Of a stretch of 54,365 nt of DNA, positions 1,803-51,556 are shown piece after piece. The position numbers and the translations under genes were made by a program. The notes under the pieces are model-generated. The model did no database searches. It was not told the origin of the DNA and worked only from the letters and a program-made list of their open reading frames with translations. Source of the DNA: a virus (lineage: Duplodnaviria; Caudoviricetes); IMG/VR virus record IMGVR_UViG_3300021226_000131, positions 1 to 54,365 of that record; one strand, 5' to 3'. Within the stretch, counting starts at the first letter, position 1; every line of letters starts with the position of its first letter.

Positions 1803-4338
1803 GGGAGGCCATCGGTTGGCTGCGTTTGATGCTCGGGAAAGCAGCCGAAAGCTGCCGTCCAAACGACACTTTTGTGCCTGCGTGATCGCGGCCCTGGGCC
1901 TCGCACCACTTCTTCCAGGCCTTGAAAAGCTCGTCGCGGTCGACCTGGGCGTGCTCGCTGACCACGCAAAGTTCGTCCACAAAAGCCCGGATCGGGCTGG
2001 TCTGATCGACCAAGTCGGAGGCCAGCTCGTCGGCTGATTTGGGGCGCTGGAAGTACCCGCGTTGGTTCAAGCGAAGCAGGCCGTCCAAGGCCCACAGGAC
2101 GATGCCAGGCAGCTCCTTAAGCAGTCGGTCGGTCAGGCCATGGTCCTCGCGGCCCAGGAAGCTCGTGTTGAACTTGAAGGGCAAAAACCGGTTGGCCAGG
2201 GCGGCCGAGGCGTCCGAGAAGGCGGGAAGCTCGTTGGAGGCCAGCACGAAGCGAATGGCCATCTTGCCGGACCAGGCGGTCATGTTCTTGCGGTCGATCG
2301 TGATCGTGTCCTCGCCCGAAATCCGCAGCAAGTTTTCCACGATCGGCTGCTGATCGGCCCGGCCGGACAGGCGCGCGTCCGAGATCATGGCCAGGCGCTT
2401 GCCGATCAGGGGCTGCAGGCCGAACTGCGTGCCCAGGGACGCCAGGCTTGGGCTTACCCGGTTGGCGTACCCCACCAGGGCCTCGAGGATGCGCAGGATC
2501 GTGCCCTTGCCGCAGCGCGGGGGGCCGATGAGCATGAACATCTTTTGTTGGCTGGTGTCGTCGGTCAGCAGGTAGCCGAACACCTCGGCCAGGGTGTCGA
2601 TCGACTCGGGGTCGTCGGGCCAGAGGCTGTGCAGGAATTTCAGCCACTCGGTGGGCTCACTGGCGCTGGGGTTGTAGTCAAACGCCAGGGACGAGACGCA
2701 AAACAGGCGGTCCGTCGAGGGCATGATGGTTCGCGTGGGGTGGTGCAGAAACCCGTTTTTAAAGGCCACGATCTCGTGGGCGGGAAAGTCGCCTGGTTTC
2801 GGGTCGATCCAGACCTGGGGCTCAGGCAGGTCGGCGTAGCAGACCGCGCGCAGGGCGTGGGCCACATCGTTGACCGTGCTGGTCTTGGGGTTGAAGGCCA
2901 CCGTTTCGCTGTCGCCCGTTTTGGGGTTGACCTTGAGGGTCATGCACCCGGCCATGAAGTGGTAGAGGCGCTGGTCGATGTAGACCCGGTCCCGGGTGAC
3001 GTAGCGGGTGGTGTCCCAGCTGTAGAACTCGCCGCGCCAGTGCAGGATACGCCCAGCCTCGGGCAGGGTGTCATGGAACAGGGTGGCGGTTTTCATCGGC
3101 GAGGATGAAAAAATCATTGGGGCATCGTGGCTGTCCGGTGGAATGTCGTCCGGGCCGTCGTCGGGCGGGGGTGGGTGGTCAGCGCCGCCAGAGGAGTACT
3201 CCGGGGGGTGGGCAAAAGGGTGGGCCGATTCTGCAAAGCGTTCTGCAGATTCTGCGGAATGGTTCTGCAAAGGCACATCATCCCAAGGCGCACCTTCGGG
3301 CCCGTCGTCACCAGGTGGCAGGGTCTCGGGCTCATCCGGTGAGCCTGCCTTCATGATACCGTCCTCGACTGCAATGAGGCCCTCGGCCAGGTGCAGGTCG
3401 TTGAAGTCGGTACCGGTGCCCCGGTCCACAGACCACAAGGGGATGGCCACCAGGGCGTTGATTTCTCGCGCAGCCTTGCGGGCATCGGTGATGCCCGGAT
3501 TGCCCTTGGTCTGGAAGTCATCGTCGGCCGCGATCACGATTCGGGCGTCGGGAAGGGCTGCGCGGATTTTTCGGGCGACCGGCGCCAGGTTGCCGGAGTT
3601 AAAGGCGACCACCACGCAGTGCCCGGTGGCCATGCGGATGGAGCAGCAGGTGGCCCAGCCCTCGGCGATGATGACCGTACCCTGCTTGTCGGGCTTGCCC
3701 AGGACGGTGTAGGCGCCGCCGGACGGGGTGCCTTTCAAAAACAGCTTTGTGCCGTCGGACTTGATGCGCTGCAGGCCGACCAAGGCGCCGGGGCCGTGGC
3801 GCATGGGGATGAGCAGCTCGTCGGCCAGCTGGCGGGCGCCCTCGGGCTCGATCAGCTTGCGTTGAGCGTAGGGGTGAACGGTTGGGGTGCTGGCCCGGGC
3901 CCACATCTCGGCGGCGCGTTGGGCGGCCAGCTCGCGCTCGATGCGCGCTGCGGTTTCCTCTTCGGCCATCCGGGCCTCGCGCTCAGCGATGCGGCGGGCA
4001 CGTTCTTCGGGGTCGACCGGCTTACGGTCCTGGGCTGTGGATTTGTAGCCGCCCTCTTTGGCCAAGGCGATCAGGGTGCCGATCGTGGCGCGGTTTGTGC
4101 CGCCGCCGGGCTTGCACGATTTCCAGACGTCGCGCGCGTCGCGGGGGTTGTAGTTCGAGCCCTGCTGGCTCCAGGCGTCCCAAGCATCAAAGGCTGGCTC
4201 GCCGAATTCTTCTTTGAGGATGAAGGCCATCTTCACCCAGGTTTCGCGGTCATCAACACCGCGAACGAATGAGAGCATGCGCTCTGCTGTCTCAAGGGAA
4301 ATGGGATCCCTTTGCCCTGTCGGTTTTTTTGTTGTCAT
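1687..4338 (-). CDS. Primase-helicase (PriCT-2-like N-terminus, TOPRIM, D5/P4-like SF3 helicase)
   Basis: DDRETWVKMAF..WDAWSQQGSNY (PriCT-2); IIAEGWAT and IAADDD (TOPRIM); VAFKNG, GPPRCGKGT Walker A, ASNELP, ALANRF (SF3). Confidence 0.93.
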   Translation of the reverse strand: MTTKKPTGQRDPISLETAERMLSFVRGVDDRETWVKMAFILKEEFGEPAFDAWDAWSQQGSNYNPRDARDVWKSCKPGGGTNRATIGTLIALAKEGGYKSTAQDRKPVDPEERARRIAEREARMAEEETAARIERELAAQRAAEMWARASTPTVHPYAQRKLIEPEGARQLADELLIPMRHGPGALVGLQRIKSDGTKLFLKGTPSGGAYTVLGKPDKQGTVIIAEGWATCCSIRMATGHCVVVAFNSGNLAPVARKIRAALPDARIVIAADDDFQTKGNPGITDARKAAREINALVAIPLWSVDRGTGTDFNDLHLAEGLIAVEDGIMKAGSPDEPETLPPGDDGPEGAPWDDVPLQNHSAESAERFAESAHPFAHPPEYSSGGADHPPPPDDGPDDIPPDSHDAPMIFSSSPMKTATLFHDTLPEAGRILHWRGEFYSWDTTRYVTRDRVYIDQRLYHFMAGCMTLKVNPKTGDSETVAFNPKTSTVNDVAHALRAVCYADLPEPQVWIDPKPGDFPAHEIVAFKNGFLHHPTRTIMPSTDRLFCVSSLAFDYNPSASEPTEWLKFLHSLWPDDPESIDTLAEVFGYLLTDDTSQQKMFMLIGPPRCGKGTILRILEALVGYANRVSPSLASLGTQFGLQPLIGKRLAMISDARLSGRADQQPIVENLLRISGEDTITIDRKNMTAWSGKMAIRFVLASNELPAFSDASAALANRFLPFKFNTSFLGREDHGLTDRLLKELPGIVLWALDGLLRLNQRGYFQRPKSADELASDLVDQTSPIRAFVDELCVVSEHAQVDRDELFKAWKKWCEAQGRDHAGTKVSFGRQLSAAFPSIKRSQPMASRTGSPADPSCADGASRTRLNLCIGIRLRHDWESDSEPF

Positions 4339-40369: not shown

Positions 40370-40579
40370 TCAGCTCAGAGCCGCGCCGACGGCAGTCACC
40401 CAAGCAGAGCCGGTGTTGATCACCAGGCAGTACTCGTTGTTGCCTGCGCCGTTGTCGGAAATGATGTAGCAAAGGCCAACGGGCGAGCTTGCGGGCGCCG
40501 GAAGGTTTGCGGTCGTGGTGAAGGGAAAGTCAAAACCGGCCAAAGACGAAACTGGGCCGCTGAAAGTGGTTTGAGCCAT
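40370..40579 (-). CDS. Small structural protein following the capsid gene
   Basis: MAQTTFSGPV.S..GF; SD GAGGA. Confidence 0.75.
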   Translation of the reverse strand: MAQTTFSGPVSSLAGFDFPFTTTANLPAPASSPVGLCYIISDNGAGNNEYCLVINTGSAWVTAVGAALS

Positions 40580-40691
40580 GATGATTCCTCACATGCGAGT
40601 TGTGCGCAGCCGTCTGCATGTCGTCGGCCAGGGCGGGCCGTCTGCTGCGCGTAAAAAAGGTGCCCTGCGAGGACATATTTGAACACAGAGT

Positions 40692-41153
40692 TCAGGTGTT
40701 TTCAAACTTTGCGTTTTTCCTGCAGTTCTCAAACCACGGGATGACTTGCAAATTCCATGGGACATGAAGACCAGAAACGGTTTTTCCTTGCAAAGGAACG
40801 ATGTGGTCAACATGCCATTGAAAGCCTGTGAGCTTTGACCGCACTTGAGCAAGATGATATGCCTCGTCAACCATCCACAACTCGTCTTCTGACAACCAGG
40901 ATGGGACTCTATTTTTTAACGCAGCATCACGTTTACGCTGGTAGGCGGCACGCTTGTGTTGATTTTTTGAAAACCATTCGCGACTATAAGCATTGCGTTC
41001 TTCGGAATGTTTTTCACGATTTATTGCACAGATTTCTTTTCTTCGTTCTTGGTTATTTGAAACCCATGCGGCAGAGCGACTTTTGGTCAGCTCCTTATTT
41101 TTAAGGTACCACTCCCTTGAAAGGCGCTTTGCGTTTTCTTTGTCTCTGGCCAT
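40692..41153 (-). CDS. HNH endonuclease (free-standing homing type)
   Basis: WHVDHIVPL.G..VSGLHVPWNLQV....N..K; AT-rich compared with flanks. Confidence 0.92.
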   Translation of the reverse strand: MARDKENAKRLSREWYLKNKELTKSRSAAWVSNNQERRKEICAINREKHSEERNAYSREWFSKNQHKRAAYQRKRDAALKNRVPSWLSEDELWMVDEAYHLAQVRSKLTGFQWHVDHIVPLQGKTVSGLHVPWNLQVIPWFENCRKNAKFENT

Positions 41154-41162
41154 TTTGAAAAT

Positions 41163-41197
41163 AAAAAAGCTCCCACCGCGAGTAGCAGTGGGAGCTT
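41163..41197 (-). terminator. Intrinsic terminator after the major capsid gene
   Basis: On -: AAGCTCCCACTGC-TACTC-GCGGTGGGAGCTT followed by TTTT. Confidence 0.85.
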
Positions 41198-41235
41198 AGA
41201 TCGGCTTTTAAACTAAGTCGAGTAAGGGTTTACCC

Positions 41236-42150
41236 TCAAACGCCAGCTGTGCCAAAAACACCTCGTGGATCCGTCCATCCGAGGGCATAACGCTCCGTCG
41301 CTTTGTAGCGCATAGAGTCAGTTTCAAAATCCCCCTCCATGGATTTCTCCAAACCGCGACGCATCATCAGCTTCAGACCTTCGGGAGCGTCGGTCTGAAC
41401 CCACCAGGCGGTGGTGCTGGTGATACGAGACAGGTTGGCTTGGCCATCGGCCAGCAAGCCCATCGACTTCACAGGGTTGATGTCGTTGTCGGCGGTGCCG
41501 GTGCGCAGCACAGACTTCAGCAGCACTTCAGCCTGGAACACGTTAGAAGGACCGGCAACGATCTTCTTGGGTGTCAGACGGATGCGCTTGCCGTTGTTGT
41601 CCACGGCATTGCGGATCTGGATCAGCATCTGCTCGAGGGACGTCTGCGACAGGGCAGCGGCGGTGGCCAGCTGGTTGCTGAACGTGCCGTTGACGATGGG
41701 GTGAGCCGTGGAAACCAGAGACACGCCGTCACCGCCTGCATACGCGCTGTTGAAGGCTCGGTTCAGGATGTTGGCTGCCAGGGTCTCTTTGGTCTCGATC
41801 AGGGACTGCGCCAGGTGCTTGGCGTAGGTCTGACCGATACGGATGTGGTCACCGTCCTCGACCAGCACTTTGGTCAGGGCAAAGGCCAGGCCGTACACCT
41901 TGTAGAGGTAGCGCTGCAGGAACAGCACGCCGCCGGACTGGTAGGTCACGGCCATGCCATCAGGCAGCTCGGGCGCAGCACCGAAACCGTACAGGACGGG
42001 TTCTTCGTGGTAGTTGCGCGGGATGCCTTTTTGTTCGCGGAAGACTTGCTTCCACTCGTCAGCACGCTGCTCATAAACGCCGTCGAACACTTCGTTCAGA
42101 ATCGGCTCGACTACGGAACGGAAGTCCGTACTACGCATTGGGGTTGCCAT
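41236..42150 (-). CDS. Major capsid protein (HK97 fold, Mu gpT-related)
   Basis: P.LN.VF...GFG.AP...L..S...TKE..AAN.LN...GGDGV.L..T.HP...LS.TSLE...DFET...YKA.ERY..GW.DPR. Confidence 0.93.
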   Translation of the reverse strand: MATPMRSTDFRSVVEPILNEVFDGVYEQRADEWKQVFREQKGIPRNYHEEPVLYGFGAAPELPDGMAVTYQSGGVLFLQRYLYKVYGLAFALTKVLVEDGDHIRIGQTYAKHLAQSLIETKETLAANILNRAFNSAYAGGDGVSLVSTAHPIVNGTFSNQLATAAALSQTSLEQMLIQIRNAVDNNGKRIRLTPKKIVAGPSNVFQAEVLLKSVLRTGTADNDINPVKSMGLLADGQANLSRITSTTAWWVQTDAPEGLKLMMRRGLEKSMEGDFETDSMRYKATERYALGWTDPRGVFGTAGV

Positions 42151-42166
42151 GTTTCAGCCCTCCTTA

Positions 42167-42769
42167 TTAACCGACTGTGTTCACAGAAGCTTTGTACTGG
42201 TGTTCGTTGATGCGAACAGTCACTACAGCGTAAGCGTCGGTGATCGAGTCATTGATTTCGTAAGCAAAGCCAGTGATCTGGAACTGGCCAGAGGTCGCTT
42301 GCAATGCGGTGAGTTGGGTTGTGGACAAACCAGTGCGGGTCGAGCCGCCAGGCGATGCCACAGTCCAGTCGGCTTCTTCGCCAACAGCAGTTTGCATGCT
42401 GGTGACGCCAGGAGTGCCCGGATTGGTGTACTGAACGTCGAACAGCGTCTCGGGATCGTCGTAGACCCAAGCGATGATGTTCGTTGCAGTCACGCCACTT
42501 GGCCAGAAAGGGCTGATGGTGGGTTTGCCGGTAACGTCGAGGTACTGGCAGCCAGCGAAAATGCCCAACAGCTTGACGCCGTCAGTAGTTCCGCTGCGTG
42601 TGCCGTCGGATGTGCCCAGCTGGACAGTACCGTCGGCGACGAGCTTCACGGGGTCGCCCGAGAAGATGTTGGCAGCATAAGCGCTGGCAACGGTGTAGGC
42701 TTTTGGACGAATCTGACCACTGTTGTGGAAAGACGCGCGGAAGCCAAAGGGTGCGCTAGTCGAAGACAT
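42167..42769 (-). CDS. Capsid decoration/minor capsid protein
   Basis: APFG.R...IF.GD.V...GIF.GC.Y...V.DDP..LF; immediately upstream of MCP. Confidence 0.8.
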   Translation of the reverse strand: MSSTSAPFGFRASFHNSGQIRPKAYTVASAYAANIFSGDPVKLVADGTVQLGTSDGTRSGTTDGVKLLGIFAGCQYLDVTGKPTISPFWPSGVTATNIIAWVYDDPETLFDVQYTNPGTPGVTSMQTAVGEEADWTVASPGGSTRTGLSTTQLTALQATSGQFQITGFAYEINDSITDAYAVVTVRINEHQYKASVNTVG

Positions 42770-42804
42770 TTGCTTTTCCTTTGATGGGTTGAGTGGACTT
42801 CAGA

Positions 42805-43335
42805 TCAGGTCAGCTCAAACTGAGCTTTCCGTTTTTGTCCAATTTCAGACATGCCATCACCCGCATCCATGCGCGACCCCGATGCACGAGCCTGTTGCTC
42901 CATGAACTCAGCCGTGTCAGTGAGCTTTTCCTCTTCGCGCAGCGGCGCGTCGTGGTGAGCTTCCTGCATGTACTTTTCGTACAGGCTGATAGGGAGTTTG
43001 AAGGCGAGCATTTCGTTGACACCGATAAAGCCCTGCCACTCGCCAGTTTTGACGGTGACATATTCCCAGCCAGGCACGTCGCTCGGCTTCAGGGGCTCGT
43101 AACCCAGACGCATACGCATGTGGATCGAGTCACGGGGGTTGGTCGTGGTTAGCCAGCAGCAATGCCAGCCATCGAGTTTGGGCAAGTCCGGAAGTGAGGA
43201 CTGGTGGAACTGCTGTCGGAACATTTCAACCCGCTCATCATCGGACAGGGCGCGCGATTCAGAAACGGCGCGATCTACCATCGCACGGTTCTCGCGGTTG
43301 TCACCAGCAGATTTCTTTAAGCGTTCGTCAGACAT
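42805..43335 (-). CDS. Conserved head-region protein
   Basis: GWH.CWL....GYEP...G.IGV..ML..K.P. Confidence 0.75.
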   Translation of the reverse strand: MSDERLKKSAGDNRENRAMVDRAVSESRALSDDERVEMFRQQFHQSSLPDLPKLDGWHCCWLTTTNPRDSIHMRMRLGYEPLKPSDVPGWEYVTVKTGEWQGFIGVNEMLAFKLPISLYEKYMQEAHHDAPLREEEKLTDTAEFMEQQARASGSRMDAGDGMSEIGQKRKAQFELT

Positions 43336-43363
43336 TTCTCGCTCCTTTCAGCGATTGGGAAAA

Positions 43364-43391
43364 ATTATAGGTTGGATTTCAAAAAACACAA
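43364..43391 (-). promoter_or_regulatory. Candidate promoter for the capsid genes
   Basis: Perfect TATAAT (43369-43364) in an AT-rich gap; only a weak -35. Confidence 0.45.
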
Positions 43392-43399
43392 CGCGATTT

Positions 43400-44401
43400 T
43401 TAAGCGCGGTTGTTTTTGTCGTATTCGGCATAGCGTTTTACGTACTTCATTCGAAGCACGGGATCGTCCCAAACGCCTGCGTCAATCAGAGCCTGCTTGC
43501 GCTCTGGGCTGATGTACACCTCGGTGCGGGTGCTGGTTGGTGCATGCTCACGGCCAGAGCCAATCGCAGGGCCGCCACGAGTCTGGCGTTGCTGGCGGGG
43601 CTCGTCGCGGGTGCCACGGTCATCGCCATGGTCGTTGCGGCGCTGGGTCTGCTTGAAGCGCTCGGGCAGGCGGCGGGCAACGCGATCGCGCAGCTCGTCC
43701 CAGTACTCCTCGGTGTCAGGCCGGAAGCCCTCGCGGTGCAGGGCGCCGTCGATGGCCAGCACAACAGCGCTGTCCTCGTCTTGGCCCTTGAGGTCGTACC
43801 AGGGGTTTTCGCTGATGAACTCCTTGGCGTAGTGCACCGCCATGTCGTCCAAACCGTCGTCTTGCTTGACCGGGCGCTGGTTGGCCGCCTGCTGCTTGGC
43901 AAACGCCAGTTGTTGCGCTTTTTGCAAGGCCTGGTCACGGTAGCGCATGGCCTGGGTGACGTCGTCCCCGTTGCCAGCGGCCACGGCCTTGGCGATCACA
44001 CGCTCAGCCATTTCGGCCTCGTTGCGGGCCTGGGCGATCTGGGCGTCGAGCTGAGACAGGTCAGCTTGGTGCGTGCGCTGCTCGACGGTACCGAGGCGGC
44101 GCTCGAGGTCGTCGTTGCGCTTGCGCAGGAAGTTCAGCTCCAGCTTGTCGCGGCTGATCGCCTCTTCGCGGCGTTGCTTGCGCTCGGCCTTTTCCTTTCG
44201 GCGGCGTTCGCGGATGGCCTCGCGCTCGGCGTCGTTTCCGTCGCCACGGTTGTCGTCGTCGTTGCCATTGAGGCGCGCGTCGCCGTCGTCATCGTGGCCG
44301 TCGTCGGCGTTGTCGTTGGGCAGGTTTTCAACGATGACCAGCTCTTCCCGGTTTTCCGGGTTGTTGCTGTTGTCGTTGTCGTCTTCGGTGAGTGCAGGCA
44401 T
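43400..44401 (-). CDS. Putative scaffolding protein
   Basis: Acidic N-terminus, long coiled coil, NPWY, EYW.EL..R; upstream of the capsid genes. Confidence 0.75.
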   Translation of the reverse strand: MPALTEDDNDNSNNPENREELVIVENLPNDNADDGHDDDGDARLNGNDDDNRGDGNDAEREAIRERRRKEKAERKQRREEAISRDKLELNFLRKRNDDLERRLGTVEQRTHQADLSQLDAQIAQARNEAEMAERVIAKAVAAGNGDDVTQAMRYRDQALQKAQQLAFAKQQAANQRPVKQDDGLDDMAVHYAKEFISENPWYDLKGQDEDSAVVLAIDGALHREGFRPDTEEYWDELRDRVARRLPERFKQTQRRNDHGDDRGTRDEPRQQRQTRGGPAIGSGREHAPTSTRTEVYISPERKQALIDAGVWDDPVLRMKYVKRYAEYDKNNRA

Positions 44402-44419
44402 GGTTTTCTCCTGTGATGT

Positions 44420-44767
44420 TTATTGGCAGGCCTCGCAGGTGCCTTCGCCCGAGAGGTCGCAGGCTTGGCCGAGGGGGAAGTCGTCGTCGTGGGCAGCCTT
44501 GGCGGCCAGCTTGCTGCGCAGCTCGTAGCCCATGAGCGGCCAGAGCTCGTTCTTGGCGTTTTTGATGGCCACAGCCTCGCCGATGGCGGGGTCGTCGTTT
44601 GCCGGAGAAACGGACGCTGATGGGCGGCCGGTCACGGCAAAACCATTACGGGTGGTCAAAACGGCCCAGCGCAGAATTTGGCCAGACTTCGACACGTGCT
44701 TGACGATCTCGGTGTCCACGATGTTGGCGTCAAGGTCCGCCGGTGTAACTCGATTTGCGGTGCTCAT
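44420..44767 (-). CDS. N4 gp49/Sf6 gp66-family protein (candidate nucleotide-signal sponge) with Cys tail
   Basis: RVTP..L...I...VL..RNGF.V.G..A.VSP.N.D..IG...A..NA...LWPLMGY.L. Confidence 0.85.
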   Translation of the reverse strand: MSTANRVTPADLDANIVDTEIVKHVSKSGQILRWAVLTTRNGFAVTGRPSASVSPANDDPAIGEAVAIKNAKNELWPLMGYELRSKLAAKAAHDDDFPLGQACDLSGEGTCEACQ

Positions 44768-45252
44768 GAGTGGCAGCTCCAATCTTCGGACAGGCAGTCG
44801 TTCACGCTGGGAACCCAGGTGCTCACGCTGTTGTCCACGTTTTTGATCGCCAAGTAGGCGTTGTAAGGGACCAGTGCGTCATCGCCAAAGTAGGCCTTGG
44901 CCGTTGGCGTGCGCGCCGGGTAGCTGTCGGCCGGGACGTAGTAAACGAACATGCCCTTGCCATTCCAGCCAGCGCGGGAAACCTTCATCCCCGCCTTGAG
45001 CGCTTCCAGGGCTTGGCCGAAGGTCATGTTTTCGGACGGCCGGTAGGCGCGCTCGAACACATCCTTGGGGCTCCAGCTCACGTATCCAGCGTAATGGTCA
45101 GTGTTGCCCTTGCCTCCGTCGACGTACTCAACAAGGTAGCCCGCATCCGCAGGGTTCTCGTCTGCCGGGACAGTCCAGCCACGGAAGTCGTTGTATTCCT
45201 GGCGGGTCATAGGCTTGGCGTTGATCAGTTTTGTGCCGATATAACGTTTCAT
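44764..45252 (-). CDS. DUF2829/Tad2-like protein with additional N-terminal domain
   Basis: MTFG.ALEALK.G.KV.R.GWNGKGMF...WVPS..D.L.EDW; N-domain YIGTK...PMTR...GYLVEY.DG...Y.SWSPKDVFE.AY. Confidence 0.88.
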   Translation of the reverse strand: MKRYIGTKLINAKPMTRQEYNDFRGWTVPADENPADAGYLVEYVDGGKGNTDHYAGYVSWSPKDVFERAYRPSENMTFGQALEALKAGMKVSRAGWNGKGMFVYYVPADSYPARTPTAKAYFGDDALVPYNAYLAIKNVDNSVSTWVPSVNDCLSEDWSCHS

Positions 45253-45261
45253 GGTGCCCCC

Positions 45262-45672
45262 TCAGATGAACGCACGGATGGCCAGCGGGTCGCCGGTCAC
45301 CTGGCCAATGATGTCGAGATCGTTGAAGATCACGAACAGAGCCGACTCGCCGGATTCCATGGGGACTTCCCAGCGATCGCCGCCGTACTTGGGCACGCGA
45401 ACGTAGTCGCCCGGCTTGCACCAGCTGCCTTCCGGCCAGGAGTCCATGGTGTTTCGGTTCTTGAACGCAAGCGCGCCAACAGAGACAACGCGGGCCACCT
45501 GGGTGTTCCACTTCTCGGTGTCACGCGAGCCGTTGTCAATGATGATGCCCGAGGCGGTCTTGGTCTTGGGGGTGCGAATCTGCACCAGGACGCGGCTTCC
45601 AAACGGGATGATTCCCGGGGATGCGTCGGGAAATGCCTCCCGCATCGCGTCAATCAGCACTTCAGCTGTCAT
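45262..45672 (-). CDS. groES: GroES-like co-chaperonin
   Basis: P.G.RVLV...KT.SGIII...VV.VG...W...GD.V...KYGG...ND.DI.G. Confidence 0.9.
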   Translation of the reverse strand: MTAEVLIDAMREAFPDASPGIIPFGSRVLVQIRTPKTKTASGIIIDNGSRDTEKWNTQVARVVSVGALAFKNRNTMDSWPEGSWCKPGDYVRVPKYGGDRWEVPMESGESALFVIFNDLDIIGQVTGDPLAIRAFI

Positions 45673-45745
45673 CTTCTGCTCCTTTCAGCAGGTGTACGGC
45701 GGCCACAGCGGCCGCCATCAAAAAATCGTCACAGACCTGTGCAAA

Positions 45746-45943
45746 TCACAGGTCTCGGTCGCCGTGTCGCTCGTCGTCCAGAAGGGCAAGCAGGGCTGCA
45801 ATGGCCGCTTCGTATCCAGCGACCATGCCCACGCGGTATCCGTACTCGAAAGCGTCACGCTCGACCGGGCGCTTGAGGGCTTCAAGCGCAAATGCCTGCT
45901 GGTCAGCCTTGAGCTTTCCGAGCAGGCGGTCCTCGATGGCCAT
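45746..45943 (-). CDS. Small helical protein
   Basis: FEY...VG...GYE.A...L; between portal and GroES. Confidence 0.75.
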   Translation of the reverse strand: MAIEDRLLGKLKADQQAFALEALKRPVERDAFEYGYRVGMVAGYEAAIAALLALLDDERHGDRDL

Positions 45944-46080
45944 CAGGCGGGGGTCTTAGGCATCGTGGGGGCAGACGGCAAGGTCTGGCCGGTCACGGGC
46001 TGGCCAGCGGCCATGCGGTGGTGCTGCTTGACCAGTGCACCAGTCATTGGCACGGTGCTTTGGGTGGGTTTGTCGCTCAT
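45943..46080 (-). CDS. Small hypothetical protein (45 aa)
   Basis: SD AAGGAG; MSDKPTQS...VKQHHRMA.G; TGATG overlap with the next gene. Confidence 0.65.
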   Translation of the reverse strand: MSDKPTQSTVPMTGALVKQHHRMAAGQPVTGQTLPSAPTMPKTPA

Positions 46081-46101
46081 GGAGTGCTCCTTGGGGTTGG
46101 A

Positions 46102-48630
46102 TTATCGTGTGCCCGGGTTGATCCCGGTACCGGTGCTGACGGCGATTTTCTCGCCGGAGGCAATTTCTGCTGCAGCCAGGCGCATGGCCGTGGCGTTGTC
46201 CGCGTCGTTCATCTGCAAGCGGGCATCAATTTCAGCGGCCGTGCGCTGATTCTCGGATGCTTGGCGCAACTGCTCGGACTGGAACTCTTCGGCGCGAGAC
46301 TGCTGCTTGTCGGCCAGAGCGGCGGCATCCAGCTGCGACTTCTGCGCGGCTTTTTGCTGCTCGAGCTGCAATCGTGCCGCGTCGGTCTGGGCCCGCTGCT
46401 GCAGTGCAAGCTGCTGCACCTGCGCATTGAGCTGCGCAATCTGCATGCTGTTGTCTTGCGGCATCTGTGGCGGCTGAGGTGCAAACTGCTCGGCCATCTT
46501 GTCGATCTGAGCCAGCTCCTGCGCAAACTGCGCCAGCTGCTGCTCGATGATCTGCTGGACCTTCACAATCACGCGAACTTGCTGCTCGGCATCGCCGTCG
46601 GCGATCAGGTGCTCACGCTCAGCGCGCTGCACAGCCTCGTGTGCTTGCGTGAGGTAGAAGTTCAGCAGGTGGTCGCGCAGGTGCTGCGCCATCGGGTAGA
46701 TGTAGGTCTTGACGATGGCCGGGTTCATGCCAAACATCGGCGACTTCAGGAACGCCAGGTGCGTCTGGATGTGCGCCACGTGGTCCTGCTTGGGCAGCAC
46801 GTAGACCGGACGGCCCATCGAGGCGGCAACGTTCTCGCTCACCGGGTCAACGTCGTCTTGGCCAGGCTGAGGCTGCAGCACATCGTCTGGGCTGAGCTTC
46901 AGGTTGCGCAGGAACATTTCCTCGACCTTGCGCAGGTCGTACATCTGCGGCATGGCAGCCGCGCGGGCCTGCACGGCCTGAACCTGGGCGAAGCGCTGGG
47001 CCTCGCTGAAAATGGCCGGGTCGCTCACAGGCACAACGTCCATCGGGCCGTCGAAGTCCTCGGGCTTGATCTCCAGACCAGATTCTTCGGCCTCGATATC
47101 CTCGTCGGTCAGGTAGGCGCTGTTGATGCGGTGCAGGATCTGGAACACGCGCGCCATCGAGTTGTGTAGGCGCGAGTGGATGGAGCTGAACACCACCATG
47201 CCCTGCTCGATGAGCGCCAAGGTTGTGCCCACCGGAGCGTTGGGGTTCTGGTCAGACAGTTTCTCGAACGAGGTCTGCACCACGCCCCTGCCAGCGTCCA
47301 CCAAGAAGCCGAGCAGCTGGAACAGCGTGGGGCTCGGGCCGTTGAACGGCAGCGGCATGGCCAGCTTGCGAATGTCGTCTACCAGGGCGCCGCCCTCGAT
47401 CTCGACCACCTCGGTCGGCTGCACGTTGATGGTTTGCCCGCCAGGCCCGCCCTTGAGCTTGATCATGGTCGGGATGTTCTGGATGTGGGCCGAGTCCAAC
47501 AGCGCGCGCAGGGCGCCGGTGGCCGCACCGGACAGGCCGCCGATCATGTGGGTGAGGCCAATCGGGTAGGCACCGCGCCACGGCACGAACGGGAACTCGA
47601 CAATCCAGTCCAGTTCTTTGCGGCGCTTGTCCTCGGGCTCCCAGTTGCGATACAGGGCCAGGGCCTTGCGCGTGGACTTGTCGATGCTGATGATGTACGG
47701 CTCCATGCCGTCACCGAAGTCCAGGTGGGTGTAAATCTCGAAGATGGTGCGCAGGCCGTCCTCGTTGTAGCTGGTGTCCTCGCGGCCCTCGATCTTGTCG
47801 TTGGCCACTGTCGAGCGGCTGAACTCGATCTGATCGGGCGAGCCAATAACCACATCGGCGTACATCCCGGCCTTGACGCGGCGGTTGAACTCGGACTTGG
47901 TGACGTACTGCACGTGCGTCTTGCGCTCGGCCGAGTAAAAGTTGGTGGCCGCAAACGGCAGGTAAATGTCGTCGATCGGGATGAACTCAGCGGTCGGGCG
48001 CTTCCACTGCGGCGACCACATGAGCTTGAGGTACTGGCCGCCGCCCAGGGGCAGCTGCGTGGACAGTTGCTCAAGCTCACCGCGCAGCTCTGGCATCTGC
48101 TGCGTGGTCTGCCAGTTCATGAAGTCGGCCTTGCGGCGGGCTTTTTCCAGCTTCTCGGGCTCGACCTCGCCCAGAATCTTGGACTTCACGGGACCGGAAG
48201 GCGGGAATACCTCCTTCATGAAGCGGGCGCTGAAGTCGACGCAGGCCTCGACCAGCATCGGGTGCACGACCTTGTTGGCGCCGGTGAATTGCGCGCCGCC
48301 GGGAGCATCGTCGCCCAGGCCGGTGCGGCGCAGGCCTTCCTCGTAGAGCTTGTCGCGCTTTTCGCGGGCGTCCTTGTCGCGCTCGATCTTGTCGAGCAGG
48401 TCGCTGGTCGCGTCGGCCAGCATGCTGCGATCGACCTCGTCAACGATGTTGGCGAAGTGGGCCTTTTTGTCGGCCACATCCTGCTCATTTTTCATGCGAA
48501 TGACCGCACCACCGTCGTCGGTGTCCTCGACCTCCATCTCGTCCTCGGTCGGCAGGGTGACGGTCTCGCCGCGCTGCTCTTCCTCGGAGTCGTTGACGTC
48601 GGTGCCGTTGTTCAGAAGTTCGTCTGCCAT
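46102..48630 (-). CDS. Portal protein
   Basis: 842 aa; VVHP.L.EA...F.A; YPIGL.HMIGGL...AT..LR.L.D; APVGTTLAL.E; Gln-rich C-terminal barrel. Confidence 0.92.
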   Translation of the reverse strand: MADELLNNGTDVNDSEEEQRGETVTLPTEDEMEVEDTDDGGAVIRMKNEQDVADKKAHFANIVDEVDRSMLADATSDLLDKIERDKDAREKRDKLYEEGLRRTGLGDDAPGGAQFTGANKVVHPMLVEACVDFSARFMKEVFPPSGPVKSKILGEVEPEKLEKARRKADFMNWQTTQQMPELRGELEQLSTQLPLGGGQYLKLMWSPQWKRPTAEFIPIDDIYLPFAATNFYSAERKTHVQYVTKSEFNRRVKAGMYADVVIGSPDQIEFSRSTVANDKIEGREDTSYNEDGLRTIFEIYTHLDFGDGMEPYIISIDKSTRKALALYRNWEPEDKRRKELDWIVEFPFVPWRGAYPIGLTHMIGGLSGAATGALRALLDSAHIQNIPTMIKLKGGPGGQTINVQPTEVVEIEGGALVDDIRKLAMPLPFNGPSPTLFQLLGFLVDAGRGVVQTSFEKLSDQNPNAPVGTTLALIEQGMVVFSSIHSRLHNSMARVFQILHRINSAYLTDEDIEAEESGLEIKPEDFDGPMDVVPVSDPAIFSEAQRFAQVQAVQARAAAMPQMYDLRKVEEMFLRNLKLSPDDVLQPQPGQDDVDPVSENVAASMGRPVYVLPKQDHVAHIQTHLAFLKSPMFGMNPAIVKTYIYPMAQHLRDHLLNFYLTQAHEAVQRAEREHLIADGDAEQQVRVIVKVQQIIEQQLAQFAQELAQIDKMAEQFAPQPPQMPQDNSMQIAQLNAQVQQLALQQRAQTDAARLQLEQQKAAQKSQLDAAALADKQQSRAEEFQSEQLRQASENQRTAAEIDARLQMNDADNATAMRLAAAEIASGEKIAVSTGTGINPGTR

Positions 48631-48632
48631 GT

Positions 48633-50834
48633 TTACCCTGCGTTGAGTGCGTTGAGATCGCCCACGATGGCGTCGATTCTAGCCGGGTCGAAGTCTACTG
48701 TGTGGGAATTCGCAACCAGGCCGCCGTCAGCGTAGGCTCGAACGTCCCCAGCTTGACCACCGTCTGCGAATCGGTAGGCCGACGCTGGGTCCTGCATCGC
48801 GTCGCTGTTGTAGATGTTGGAGCCGACCAGGCCGTTGCCTGTCTGGCCGTTGCTCACCACGCCGCCTTCAGCGTATTTCTGGACCAGGCCGCCCATGGCG
48901 AAACCTTCGCCGCGCACGCCTGGGGTGAGGCCGGTGCCAAAGGTCCGCTGCAGGTCTTCAATCTCCGCAGGTGACAGGTAGTTCCCCACCTCGCGGCCCG
49001 AGCTCTTTAGGGTCTCCAGCTCCAAGTCGTTAAAAACATCACGTGACGAACGAAGCCCCGTGTTCTGCAGATCACCGATTCGACCCCAGTTCCCAGACCG
49101 GATGAAGTCCTGCACGGCAGGCAGGTACTCTTCCTTGGGTGCGCGGTTGGCCTTGCCTTTGATCTGGACGATTTCAGGGGTGCTTATTTTTCGCGCGTAA
49201 TCCTGAGCTTCTTCAAGAGTTGGGAAGCCGTTACCTTGGTTGTTGACGATAAATGTCGGTCGTCCTTTGAAATTGCCTTCGGTGATCGATGGATTTTCAA
49301 CGCCCGGCGCCACCTCGATCGTCACGTGCGGCTGGCCCTTCTTGTCGCGCAGGCTGTAAATCTTGGACCGACCCTCGACCACATCAGGGCAGTAGCCGCC
49401 GACGCAGTGGCCCATGGTCTCGCCTTCGTACTTGAGGGCGTCCTCCAGGGCTTTGTAGGACTCGTCCATTTCGACCTTCTTCTTGCGGCCGAAATCCTCC
49501 ATGGTCCGGCGCACGAAGTCGTTGAACTCGCGCGTGCCTTCCTCGAGCCCTTCGTCGTATGCCATGTCCATGGCCACTTCGCGGCCCATGGCCTCGTTGT
49601 AGTCAGGAGGCAAATCCATCTCAGGTTTCTCGACGCTGATCTTGCGGCCAGTTTCCTTGGGGGCTTTGAGCTCCACCCACTTGAAGCCCTGGTCCGGGTA
49701 CTCCTTAATCACATGCGTGGCGGGCCCCATCGCCCGCGCCATGTCTGCCTCAGCCTTCTGCGCCGCACGCCACTCGTTGATCTTGGCCACGCGCTCGACC
49801 GCCTGGGGCACGGTGACCTTTTCCAGGTCGGAGTACTTCAGGCGCAGGTTCTCTGGCAAACCGGACGCAGGGTTGATGGCGTTTTTCAGCTCGTCGACCA
49901 GGTGGGTGAATCCAAGATTGGCTGCGGCATCAGACTGCGACGGTAAATAAACGGGCGTCTCTGGGGGAACCTTGGCCAGCCAAGGCATCTGCTCGGCGTA
50001 GCCTTGCCGTAGAAGCTCACCAGCTGGCATCTGGCCAATCGTCACATCACTTGCATCTTCCCACGCTTTTGCCGCTTCGCTTTGGCCCATGGCTTGGTTG
50101 CCAGATTTTCTGCGAAGGTCTGAAGCCAAATACCGATTCAAACCAATTTGCTCTGGGGCAATGTGCAAAACGCCACGCTCAGCCAGCGCGCGGACGGGGT
50201 CCTCGGGCGTAGCCATCTCGTTCTTGATGTACTTGCCGAGCTTGGTTTCAATCCAGCGGTTCATGGCCGCCTCTGGAAGTTGACGAGCACGCACGCTTTC
50301 TGAAACATCGACGCCCGCACGCTCTGCCAAGTTTTGAAGCCCGGTTTCGTTGAGGACCGTTTGCTGCATGGGATTTACTACGCGCTCAACGCTTCCCGTC
50401 ATCCAGTTCCCGCCCTTGGGTTTCACTACGTTCACGGCGGGCTGCCCTGCGGCCATGGCGAAGTCACGCCCAGCGCGCGACACCGCCGATGGCAAGCCAG
50501 CGATCGCACGCAGCGGGGAGCCGGGCCCGGCGTAAAACCCGCCGCCCAGCGTGCCCAACTCGGTCGCGGCACGGCCAACGGGCGTCTGGCTTACGCTGCG
50601 CAACGGAAGGCCAGCCTCGACGTCACGACTGGTTGGCAGCACGGTTTTTTCAGACAGGCCCGGCAGCATGCGCACCAGGGACTCAATATCGCCCGGGGCG
50701 CCAAGCACGCCAGAGGCCAAACCGCGCAGGGCGGCCAGAGGAGCGTTGGCAGATGCGGCGCGGTCGTTGAGCTCAGGACGGCGGCGGCCAGCGGAGCGGT
50801 AGCCTATATACGGCTGGTTCAGATCATCGGCCAC
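48633..50834 (-). CDS. Large protein with PcfJ-like domain and four C-terminal (F/Y)AxGG motifs
   Basis: LKYEGETMGHCVGGY...IYSLRD..G.PHVTIEV...I.QIKGK.N. Confidence 0.75.
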   Translation of the reverse strand: MADDLNQPYIGYRSAGRRRPELNDRAASANAPLAALRGLASGVLGAPGDIESLVRMLPGLSEKTVLPTSRDVEAGLPLRSVSQTPVGRAATELGTLGGGFYAGPGSPLRAIAGLPSAVSRAGRDFAMAAGQPAVNVVKPKGGNWMTGSVERVVNPMQQTVLNETGLQNLAERAGVDVSESVRARQLPEAAMNRWIETKLGKYIKNEMATPEDPVRALAERGVLHIAPEQIGLNRYLASDLRRKSGNQAMGQSEAAKAWEDASDVTIGQMPAGELLRQGYAEQMPWLAKVPPETPVYLPSQSDAAANLGFTHLVDELKNAINPASGLPENLRLKYSDLEKVTVPQAVERVAKINEWRAAQKAEADMARAMGPATHVIKEYPDQGFKWVELKAPKETGRKISVEKPEMDLPPDYNEAMGREVAMDMAYDEGLEEGTREFNDFVRRTMEDFGRKKKVEMDESYKALEDALKYEGETMGHCVGGYCPDVVEGRSKIYSLRDKKGQPHVTIEVAPGVENPSITEGNFKGRPTFIVNNQGNGFPTLEEAQDYARKISTPEIVQIKGKANRAPKEEYLPAVQDFIRSGNWGRIGDLQNTGLRSSRDVFNDLELETLKSSGREVGNYLSPAEIEDLQRTFGTGLTPGVRGEGFAMGGLVQKYAEGGVVSNGQTGNGLVGSNIYNSDAMQDPASAYRFADGGQAGDVRAYADGGLVANSHTVDFDPARIDAIVGDLNALNAG

Positions 50835-51276
50835 AAGAGCACTCCTTGATGTGGTTGAGGGGGCTGTGAATCAAACCACCCTGAGCTTTGTTGACCCACG
50901 GAACACCGGCTTGTTGCTCGCGGGCGGCGCGTTCTGCTGCTTGCTGCACAAGGTCCTCAAGTTCGCGCTGCGACTGAGCGCGACGCGCCAGCTCAATACC
51001 CAGCGCGTTGTTGTGCATGTCCTGCTTGTAATCCGGCGGCATCTCGCCCCGGCCAAGCATCATCATCAGCGCGCGCAACGGAGAGGTGGAATACTCGTGT
51101 GCCCGACCTGCCAGATCGGCAACCGTTGGACCGTACTTCCGCGCCATGGTGCCAGCGGCCAACATGTGGCGGGCAGCGTCTTGCTGATCATCTTGGCCAA
51201 GCTGGCCGGGGTACATCTCGCGAGCAATCGCACGCGCGTAAGGCGAGACAGAAAAAATTGATGGGGTATCGGGCAT
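50824..51276 (-). CDS. Protein with DAxRH...HE...DxHNNxxG domain (DUF6973-like) and C-terminal KAQGG
   Basis: DAARHML, AHE, DMHNNALG. Confidence 0.75.
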   Translation of the reverse strand: MPDTPSIFSVSPYARAIAREMYPGQLGQDDQQDAARHMLAAGTMARKYGPTVADLAGRAHEYSTSPLRALMMMLGRGEMPPDYKQDMHNNALGIELARRAQSQRELEDLVQQAAERAAREQQAGVPWVNKAQGGLIHSPLNHIKECSCGR

Positions 51277-51280
51277 AAAT

Positions 51281-51556
51281 TCACCACTTCACTTTGTTGG
51301 CCCAGTAGGCCGCGCTCGACGGCCCCTTGGCGATGTTCTTGGCGTGGCGTGCTTTAAACGCGTCGCGCTTGGCGGTGGTGGCTGCCGACTCGCCAGCCTT
51401 GGGCTTGCCCGCCGTCTTGGCACCCTGCTCACCGAAGCGGATCACCTTCTCGGTGCCGTCGTAGCAGGCTTTGACAACGTGGGATTTCGTCGGGTGGTCC
51501 GGCGTGCGCTTGGGTTTGTTGCAGTCCATCTCGGACTTTTTCACCGGCCGCGTCAT
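51281..51556 (-). CDS. Small basic conserved phage protein
   Basis: KSHVV.A...IRFG.QG...F.ARH...SAAYWA.KVKW. Confidence 0.8.
   Translation of the reverse strand: MTRPVKKSEMDCNKPKRTPDHPTKSHVVKACYDGTEKVIRFGEQGAKTAGKPKAGESAATTAKRDAFKARHAKNIAKGPSSAAYWANKVKW

Follow-up and report, generated by a model that had tools for sequence, protein, structure and literature searches.

A translationally coupled pair of putative signal-sponge genes in an exchange slot of a phage head gene module

Sponge proteins of the Tad2 and Acb4 families are reported to be frequently fused in phages, and one such fusion, carried by Pasteurella phage Pm86, cancels type I Thoeris as well as the type I cyclic oligonucleotide-based antiphage signalling system (CBASS) (Tal et al., bioRxiv 10.1101/2025.07.12.664507). 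Other fusions described in that preprint (10.1101/2025.07.12.664507) join Tad2 to Sequestin and Sequestin to Acb4, and an Acb4-Sequestin fusion is described for Pseudomonas phage Ab09 in a report that also cites recent work in which N4 acb4 activates Panoptes (10.64898/2026.06.04.730250). Chang et al. place SPO1 Acb4 in Pfam family PF13876 and take the 1,331 members of this family as the Acb4 family (bioRxiv 10.1101/2024.12.30.630793). Among Tad2 proteins, ModTad2 is reported to block Thoeris of type II but not that of type I and was used to capture His-ADP-ribose (His-ADPR) (bioRxiv 10.1101/2024.01.03.573942), and it is reported to bind cyclic UMP and cyclic CMP (cUMP/cCMP) in a second pocket and to block the pyrimidine cyclase system for antiphage resistance (Pycsar) (bioRxiv 10.1101/2025.08.24.671296). 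Here we analyze two adjacent genes at positions 44420-45252 of a virus record in IMG/VR (IMGVR_UViG_3300021226_000131, 54,365 bases, rated 99% complete; this whole stretch is referred to as the window), in which all genes of the head region lie on the minus strand. Gene 1 belongs to the Tad2 family and gene 2 to the Acb4 family; each adds a member to a sponge family already in print, and their combination is known from phage N4 and from the published fusions. The pair is very probably a counter-defence cassette of signal sponges against Thoeris, CBASS and probably Pycsar, coupled in translation and held in an exchange slot of the head operon, where its products would mop up the small nucleotide signals that switch on the effectors of these systems.

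An earlier note on this sequence had described an ATGA-coupled gene pair between a GroES-like and a scaffold-like gene. The open reading frame (ORF) listing and our reading of the sequence agree with it: 44420-45252 contains exactly two overlapping minus-strand genes (see table). Its family assignments hold as well. Gene 1 matches PF11195 (DUF2829/Tad2) over residues 76-159 (E = 7.9e-25, 87.6 bits, gathering cut-off 25) and gene 2 matches PF13876 (E = 4.3e-16, 59.6 bits, cut-off 27); the link to Acb4, which the note had drawn for the N4 gp49/Sf6 gp66 family, is confirmed for PF13876 by Chang et al. (bioRxiv 10.1101/2024.12.30.630793). The start of gene 2 is most likely the ATG at 44767, because homologues begin with MST there; a longer ORF call reaches a TTG at 44782.

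A PDB sequence search identified ModTad2 as the closest solved relative of gene 1 (8v3e/9eib, E = 4e-29 to 7.5e-30), ahead of SPO1 Tad2 (E = 1.8e-16) and HgmTad2 (E = 8e-15), and phrog_872 matches the protein over its full length (E = 6e-63). The AlphaFold2 (AF2) model of gene 1 (mean predicted local distance difference test score, pLDDT, 89.8) matches 9eib_B in Foldseek (E = 4e-11, template modelling (TM) score by target 0.86, 55% identity), with Tad2 entries filling the top 18 rows listed, and VIA-align superposes it on ModTad2 with Z 11.7 and a root-mean-square deviation of 2.4 (86 aligned). TadIV-1 was tried as a relative of gene 1 and rejected, as only Tad2 PDB sequences matched at E <0.3.

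The GWNG and W..S..D motifs of the ADPR-type pocket are retained in gene 1. Eleven positions of the HgmTad2 pocket for glycocyclic ADP-ribose (gcADPR) (W21, N22, G23, M76, A78, V84, W87, L88, S90, T92 and D93; residue names as given in bioRxiv 10.1101/2023.11.15.567273) were mapped by HMMER alignment. Seven are identical in gene 1 (W96, N97, G98, V143, W146, S149, D152), two are conservative (I136, V147) and two are changed (A78 to N138, T92 to N151). By homology, the C-terminal domain of gene 1 would be a ModTad2-type sponge that forms tetramers, its pockets lying where the subunits meet. Because its closest relative blocks type II Thoeris and Pycsar and not type I Thoeris, His-ADPR is a better first guess for the ligand than gcADPR. 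By analogy with ModTad2, the chance that gene 1 binds His-ADPR (type II Thoeris) appears about even, additional binding of cUMP/cCMP (Pycsar) is a tentative possibility, and binding of gcADPR instead would be unlikely.

The AF2 model of gene 2 (mean pLDDT 80.4, last 20 residues disordered) finds chains of SPO1 Acb4 (9e4w) in all ten of its best Foldseek rows (E = 1e-2 to 2.7e-2, probability 1.00), with TM scores by target of 0.59-0.68 and 20-23% identity. The model supports an SPO1 Acb4 core fold, consisting of a helix, three strands and a long helix. Family members from phages of Gram-negative bacteria are closer to gene 2 in sequence (N4 gp48, E = 2e-10; Sf6 gene 66, E = 2e-8), and a Pseudomonas N4-like phage carries a further match at ~42 kb (E = 1e-6). 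All eight purified Acb4 homologues (8/8) are reported to have bound 3'3'-cyclic GMP-AMP (3'3'-cGAMP), those of Gram-negative phages also 3'3'-cAA (bioRxiv 10.1101/2024.12.30.630793). Gene 2 would by homology be a tetrameric Acb4-type sponge, most likely binding cyclic dinucleotides of CBASS, for example 3'3'-cGAMP, and possibly also forms of c-di-AMP.

The earlier note had also read the pair as an insertion into the head module, and this is borne out by Caulobacter phage RW (76% nucleotide (nt) identity to the window over the aligned 30% of the query), in which the slot is empty: its GroES gene and its scaffold-position gene are separated by an empty stretch of 73 bp. The window's own lineage comprises 11 of 80 IMG/VR loci. 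Portal proteins are 86-98% identical to that of the window in 11/11 loci, and capsid proteins are 95-99% identical in the 9 loci that reach this gene. The slot is occupied in 11/11, and its contents differ. In the window it holds an N-terminal domain (N-domain, described below) joined to a ModTad2-like Tad2, and a short Acb4 with a C-terminal tail. The same Tad2 form is accompanied by an insert-bearing Acb4 with tail in L007 and by a short Acb4 without tail in L009. An N-domain with a longer Tad2 form and an insert-bearing Acb4 occupy the slots of L049, L050, L056, L059 and L073; the longer Tad2 form is found with a short Acb4 in L052 and by itself in L064. A shortened N-domain with Tad2, then a RyR-domain gene, is found in L082 and L084, with Acb4 next in L082; L084 ends before this point. 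The RyR-domain gene (L082:4408-4770, 120 aa, PF02026 E = 7.7e-11; same position in L084) resembles the published gcADPR sponge RyR Tad. The N-domain of these two loci is shortened to ~45 residues.

Comparison with L073, whose head genes are the most similar to those of the window (portal 98%, capsid 99%), reveals a mosaic pattern. The best matches of the Tad2 allele in L073 are HgmTad2/AcrIIA7 and SptTad2 (E = 3e-18 to 1e-17); ModTad2 ranks only fourth. The two gene 1 proteins are near-identical through the motif GWNGKGM (residue ~101) and divergent after it. Nucleotide identity is 86-100% in the flanks, 80% in the N-domain, 33-43% from ~45000 to 44640, across the C-terminal half of Tad2 and the core of Acb4, and 69-87% in the last third of gene 2. 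Population breakpoints were read from contigs of four public runs aligned to the window, stretches without cover being uninformative. In run X1, one DNA contig connects 44544 and 44758 through 330 different letters, where the window has 213 (44545-44757). Loose contig ends fall at 44544 in X15, X16 and X5; X5 also has one at 44758, and X15 and X1 have them at 44949 and 44985. Contigs from two RNA-library runs match the window in the flanks, over the tail of gene 2 and over the initial 78 nt of gene 1, beyond which they continue as different sequence. The N-domain, the GWNGKGM motif, the LWPLMGYEL helix and the tail remain constant; the exchanged pieces would, by analogy, be the parts that carry the insertion and pocket elements in solved relatives. 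This pattern marks the GroES-scaffold slot as a gene-exchange hot spot, in which recombination at short conserved intragenic motifs would replace the specificity-determining parts and leave the N-domain and the C-terminal tail in place. Twelve studies contribute 20 public runs whose contigs contain all or part of the region 43300-46200; 14 runs hold at least half of the sampled words, and 13 of these are labelled riverine, freshwater, aquatic or estuary metagenomes (one is unlabelled).

The earlier note missed the second domain of gene 1, the small beta-rich N-domain of residues 1-74, for which a Pfam search found no family. When the complete gene 1 model was compared by Foldseek and VIA-align, no solved fold resembled these residues convincingly (best matches DUF1653 3be3_B, Z 3.1; chromodomain-like rows, Z 2.5-2.7). 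Sequestin is ruled out as its identity, being helical, and Lockin is unlikely, as it is a beta 'cog' hexamer that its authors could not find in INPHARED and gene 1 has relatives in 410 INPHARED records. An exhaustive HMMER search returned 1859 cluster representatives with an N-domain at E<=1e-3 (959 at E<=1e-10), in which the domain is N-terminal, in the middle or C-terminal in proteins of 92-354 aa. The partners among the best 150 relatives are Tad2 (42), Sequestin (PF21825, 42) and PF13876 (21), and more rarely the Acb2/Tad1 hairpin (2) and AP2 + HNH_3 (1, both in protein P0251); the remaining relatives have no Pfam family at the cut-off, and the partner classes may overlap. In P0251 (354 aa), the homing-endonuclease-like HNH_3 and AP2 lie between the N-domain and Tad2, near the lineage exchange breakpoint. 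A structure search of the ESM Atlas yielded the same partners plus stand-alone forms of 75-78 aa. RyR Tad (Pectobacterium phage CB1 gp68) begins with a homologue of the N-domain (BLASTP E = 1e-6, 34% identity, residues 1-67 vs 4-63), and the partners of the N-domain comprise at least five sponge families: Tad2, Acb4, Sequestin, the Acb2/Tad1 hairpin and RyR Tad. The RyR Tad preprint describes the gp68 N-domain as a fold of unknown function that is often a separate ORF and forms a beta1-swapped dimer in the crystal; alone, it is reported there to have no anti-type I Thoeris activity. As the N-domain has no Pfam model, the Pfam-based fusion screen of Tal et al. could not list it.

A homodimer model of the N-domain reached an ipSAE of 0.72, whereas the best of three controls stayed at 0.00; the mark used for this score was reached by 20/30 proteins solved as pairs of one chain and by 1/23 solved as single chains. 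The dimer runs agree in at least 96% of contacts with a partner pLDDT of at least 88, and residues 1-13 of the two chains pair antiparallel, 7 with 7. The models indicate that the N-domain most likely dimerises by exchanging its first beta-strand, a prediction that may echo the solved relative if the model had already seen the crystal structure of gp68. Many of the positions that are near-invariant across the 150 relatives fall within the predicted interface (R24, G25, W26, P29, L40, E42 to G47, N50, Y57, S59 and P62), a conservation that fits a plain dimer contact and an interface pocket alike.

Gene 2 ends in a cysteine-containing tail (AF2 pLDDT <50 over residues 96-104 and 106-108). This tail, 20-22 residues in length, is present in 26/120 close Acb4 homologues and in 2/120 gene 1 homologues (P0052, P0053), and it also ends a Sequestin gene (L099:2435-2707, PF21825, E = 3.2e-20) and the RyR-domain protein of MW202867 (PF02026, E = 7e-11), L087:2153-2569 being among the tail-bearing sites, so that it spans four sponge families: Acb4, Tad2, Sequestin and RyR-domain proteins. 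Unrelated phages differ at synonymous positions in the tail, which argues for constraint on it at the protein level. In L056 and L082 the first tail Cys is replaced by Ser and the CxxC-Q end is retained. The tail occurs in 3/25 Acb4 loci that have an adjacent N-domain and in 0/55 that lack one, too few for a conclusion. A full-text literature search with the last five tail residues gave nothing relevant among the matches listed. One speculative and rather doubtful idea is that the N-domain and the Cys tail are general adaptor modules of sponges: the N-domain would be a sixth sponge with its own ligand at the dimer interface or a coupler of oligomers, the tail a CxxC metal clasp, and their coding sequence would give homology arms for specificity swaps.

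The two genes are tightly packed among the head genes. The GroES-like gene and gene 1 are separated by 9 nt bearing a GGGGG Shine-Dalgarno-like run, gene 1 and gene 2 overlap (-4), and gene 2 is followed by the scaffold-like gene after 18 nt that contain AGGAGA. The scaffold-like protein, named by its position between portal and capsid, has no family match in Pfam and PHROG searches and is 74-92% identical in the 10/11 lineage loci that reach it (L084 ends before). The 65-aa ORF between the portal-position and GroES-like genes is 86-95% identical in 11/11 lineage loci and has no Pfam or PHROG match. From portal start to capsid end, the hairpin after the capsid gene is the sole terminator-like site on the minus strand, and it likely marks the end of the head transcription unit. 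A scan restricted to the sigma-70 type found no such site in 40500-51500 (1.7 expected). As there is no terminator-like or sigma-70-like site inside and the hairpin comes only after the capsid gene, co-expression of the pair with the head genes is plausible from this layout, and the two coupled genes in the portal-to-capsid row would probably be made along with the head proteins. We find no compositional sign of recent import (GC content 0.589 and 0.626, GC at third codon positions 0.77-0.78, similar to the flanking genes). The earlier note had pointed to head proteins as triggers of the targeted systems. Head proteins are CBASS triggers. A capsid vertex mutation is reported to escape type IV Thoeris, which points to a head protein as its trigger (PMC13243611), and type II Thoeris is reported to sense the tail fibre (10.64898/2026.06.04.730250).

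Table. Features of the head region around the gene pair (window positions, in descending order).
Feature	Position	Strand	Remarks
Portal-position gene	46102..48630	-	first in head gene order
65-aa ORF	45746..45943	-	between portal and GroES-like gene
GroES/Cpn10-like gene	45262..45672	-	PF00166 E 9e-10; phrog_3188 co-chaperonin GroES; upstream border of slot
Gene 1, 162 aa, N-domain + Tad2-like domain	44764..45252	-	ORF, PF11195, phrog_872
N-domain of gene 1, residues 1-74, small beta-rich	45031..45252	-	predicted strand-exchanging homodimer
Tad2 domain of gene 1, residues 75-162, ModTad2-like	44764..45030	-	sequence and structure matches to ModTad2
Third breakpoint zone, in Tad2 domain just after GWNGKGM	44949..44985		loose contig ends
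ATGA overlap, gene 1 stop (44764-44766) / gene 2 start	44764..44767	-	read from sequence
Gene 2, 115 aa, Acb4-family with C-terminal Cys tail	44420..44767	-	PF13876
Swapped segment (Acb4 N-terminus + core)	44544..44758		recurrent population breakpoints at both ends
C-terminal tail of gene 2, residues 94-115 + stop	44420..44488	-	acidic run, FPLG, C-x8-C-x2-C-Q
Scaffold-like gene, 333 aa, acidic	43400..44401	-	downstream border of slot; named by position
Major capsid gene	41236..42150	-	PF25209 E 1.8e-11; two further genes between scaffold-like gene and capsid
Terminator-like hairpin	41167..41197	-	13-bp stem, 8 G-C pairs, then T-run; directly after capsid gene

Several observations weigh against a cassette with these targets. 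Gene 2 is remote from 9e4w, the one Acb4 with a solved structure, which a profile built from 34 relatives reaches at E = 0.38 and Foldseek at E = 1e-2. The ligand contacts of SPO1 Acb4 (K36, F48, E49, V56, Y57, F62, N63, I66, T70 and K81) set specificity and not family membership, and in the weak alignment provided by this profile two of the nine mapped contacts are kept (F48 as F43, I66 as I62), K36 lying outside it. For gene 1, 55-57% identity to ModTad2 leaves the ligand unfixed, Tad2 specificity is reported to shift often, and the authors of that report call their own Tad2 trees unreliable (bioRxiv 10.1101/2025.08.24.671296); in the same report, 19/84 tested sponge homologues inhibited none of seven systems. 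The argument for late co-expression comes from gene layout, and the RNA-library contigs that cross the scaffold/gene 2 junction are related variants in a type of library in which DNA can occur.

The nearest alternative retains both sponges with other targets: gene 1 would sequester gcADPR (type I Thoeris) and gene 2 cGAMP, with the N-domain and the tail functionally idle. Seven of the eleven HgmTad2 pocket positions are identical in gene 1, most earlier-tested Tad2 homologues are reported to inhibit type I Thoeris (bioRxiv 10.1101/2024.01.03.573942), Tad2_71 is reported to block types I, II and IV (bioRxiv 10.1101/2025.08.24.671296), and the isolated CB1 gp68 N-domain is inactive against type I Thoeris. 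However, the closest characterised relative of gene 1 is ModTad2 (E = 4e-29 vs 1.8e-16 for SPO1 Tad2), which was reported not to inhibit type I Thoeris, and protein-level conservation of the N-domain and tail across many unrelated phages argues that they have a role. We regard this alternative as rather unlikely and favor a Tad2 domain of ModTad2 type in a cassette whose accessory modules are under constraint.

The nearest cultured relatives of the window infect Caulobacter. The Caulobacter cell cycle is governed by cyclic di-GMP (c-di-GMP). A second alternative, which we consider improbable, is that both proteins target host housekeeping messengers such as c-di-GMP and reprogram physiology, not immunity. 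HgmTad2 is reported to bind c-di-GMP with affinity in the pM range (bioRxiv 10.1101/2023.11.15.567273) and the sister allele in L073 is HgmTad2/SptTad2-like, but the window's own allele is ModTad2-like. Among the Acb4 homologues described as tested none bound 3'3'-cGG, and the authors state that sponges avoid homeostatic signals (bioRxiv 10.1101/2024.12.30.630793). Alleles in the slot turn over rapidly, the expected outcome of an arms race.

This cassette has no fixed genomic address. Among the IMG/VR loci with a gene 1 relative, 28/80 contain an Acb4-like gene, in each case on the same strand and within ~450 nt (23 downstream, 5 upstream), and among those with a gene 2 relative, an N-domain is close by in 25/80 and a Tad2 domain in 20/80. 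Acidovorax phage AP1 carries a gene 1 homologue (67% identical) and then a 'gene 66 protein', and IME11 carries both genes with one gene between them. That the two proteins are head-assembly accessories, such as chaperone partners or decoration proteins, as their packing between the GroES-like and scaffold-like genes in one operon might suggest, is highly improbable given that the pair is absent at this position in phage RW, that one gene is absent in L064, that the same pair lies in replication or lysis regions in N4, IME11, Kapi1 and AP1, and that both proteins are strongly homologous to solved sponges. In Escherichia phage Kapi1 (L003), a P22/Sf6-like phage, an N-domain + Tad2 gene (3001-3522) has the lysis genes on one side and the small terminase gene on the other. 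In the temperate phage AP1 (L002, 3986-4926), an N-domain + Tad2 gene follows the lysis genes beside the integrase region, with an Acb4-family gene after it.

As an annotation, the pair is ordinary: two published sponge families, in a combination already met in phage N4 and among published fusions. What makes it valuable is natural variation, as a dozen phages with near-identical head genes carry different sponge alleles in one slot, with Tad2 of ModTad2-like or HgmTad2-like form, Acb4 short or insert-bearing, and a RyR-domain gene present or absent. The intragenic breakpoints turn these alleles into a ready-made allelic series for mapping the segments that determine ligand specificity, and the slot indicates that anti-defence exchange sites can lie within structural operons. 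The new content is modest and consists of the head-operon exchange slot, the allelic series and two small modules that travel with several sponge families; the N-domain and the shared Cys tail are testable leads to sponge biology invisible to Pfam-based screens.

Compared with its closest characterised relative, the Tad2 domain of gene 1 is 55-57% identical over its whole length to ModTad2/MoTad2 of a Myroides odoratus prophage (PDB 8V3E, 9EIB) and has the same fold and a nearly equal insert, which is two residues longer in the window protein, whereas ModTad2 is a stand-alone protein of ~88 aa without an N-domain. RyR Tad (CB1 gp68) has a homologous N-domain whose beta1-swapped dimer agrees with the dimer model of gene 1. 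Its sponge domain, which follows the N-domain, is a RyR repeat and not Tad2, and its N-domain sequence departs from the near-invariant residues: R17 and N21 differ, and the positions of R24, W26 and D45-N50 are gaps or different. Gene 2 shares its Pfam family and core fold with SPO1 Acb4 (PDB 9E4W), with only 20-23% identity and an extra 22-residue Cys tail.

The closest parallel to the pair as a unit is found in coliphage N4. N4 gp49 (160 aa, N-domain + Tad2) is 44% identical to gene 1 (E = 7e-46), gp48 carries PF13876 (E = 8.8e-35) and matches gene 2 (at the E value given above), and the two genes are adjacent on the same strand with a one-base overlap. In contrast to the window, their order is reversed, the pair lies between the replication genes and the virion RNA polymerase gene, an anti-signalling hot spot, and gp48 has no Cys tail, the match with gene 2 ending before it. 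The published sponge fusions likewise deliver two specificities as one unit, whereas gene 1 and gene 2 encode separate, translationally coupled polypeptides.

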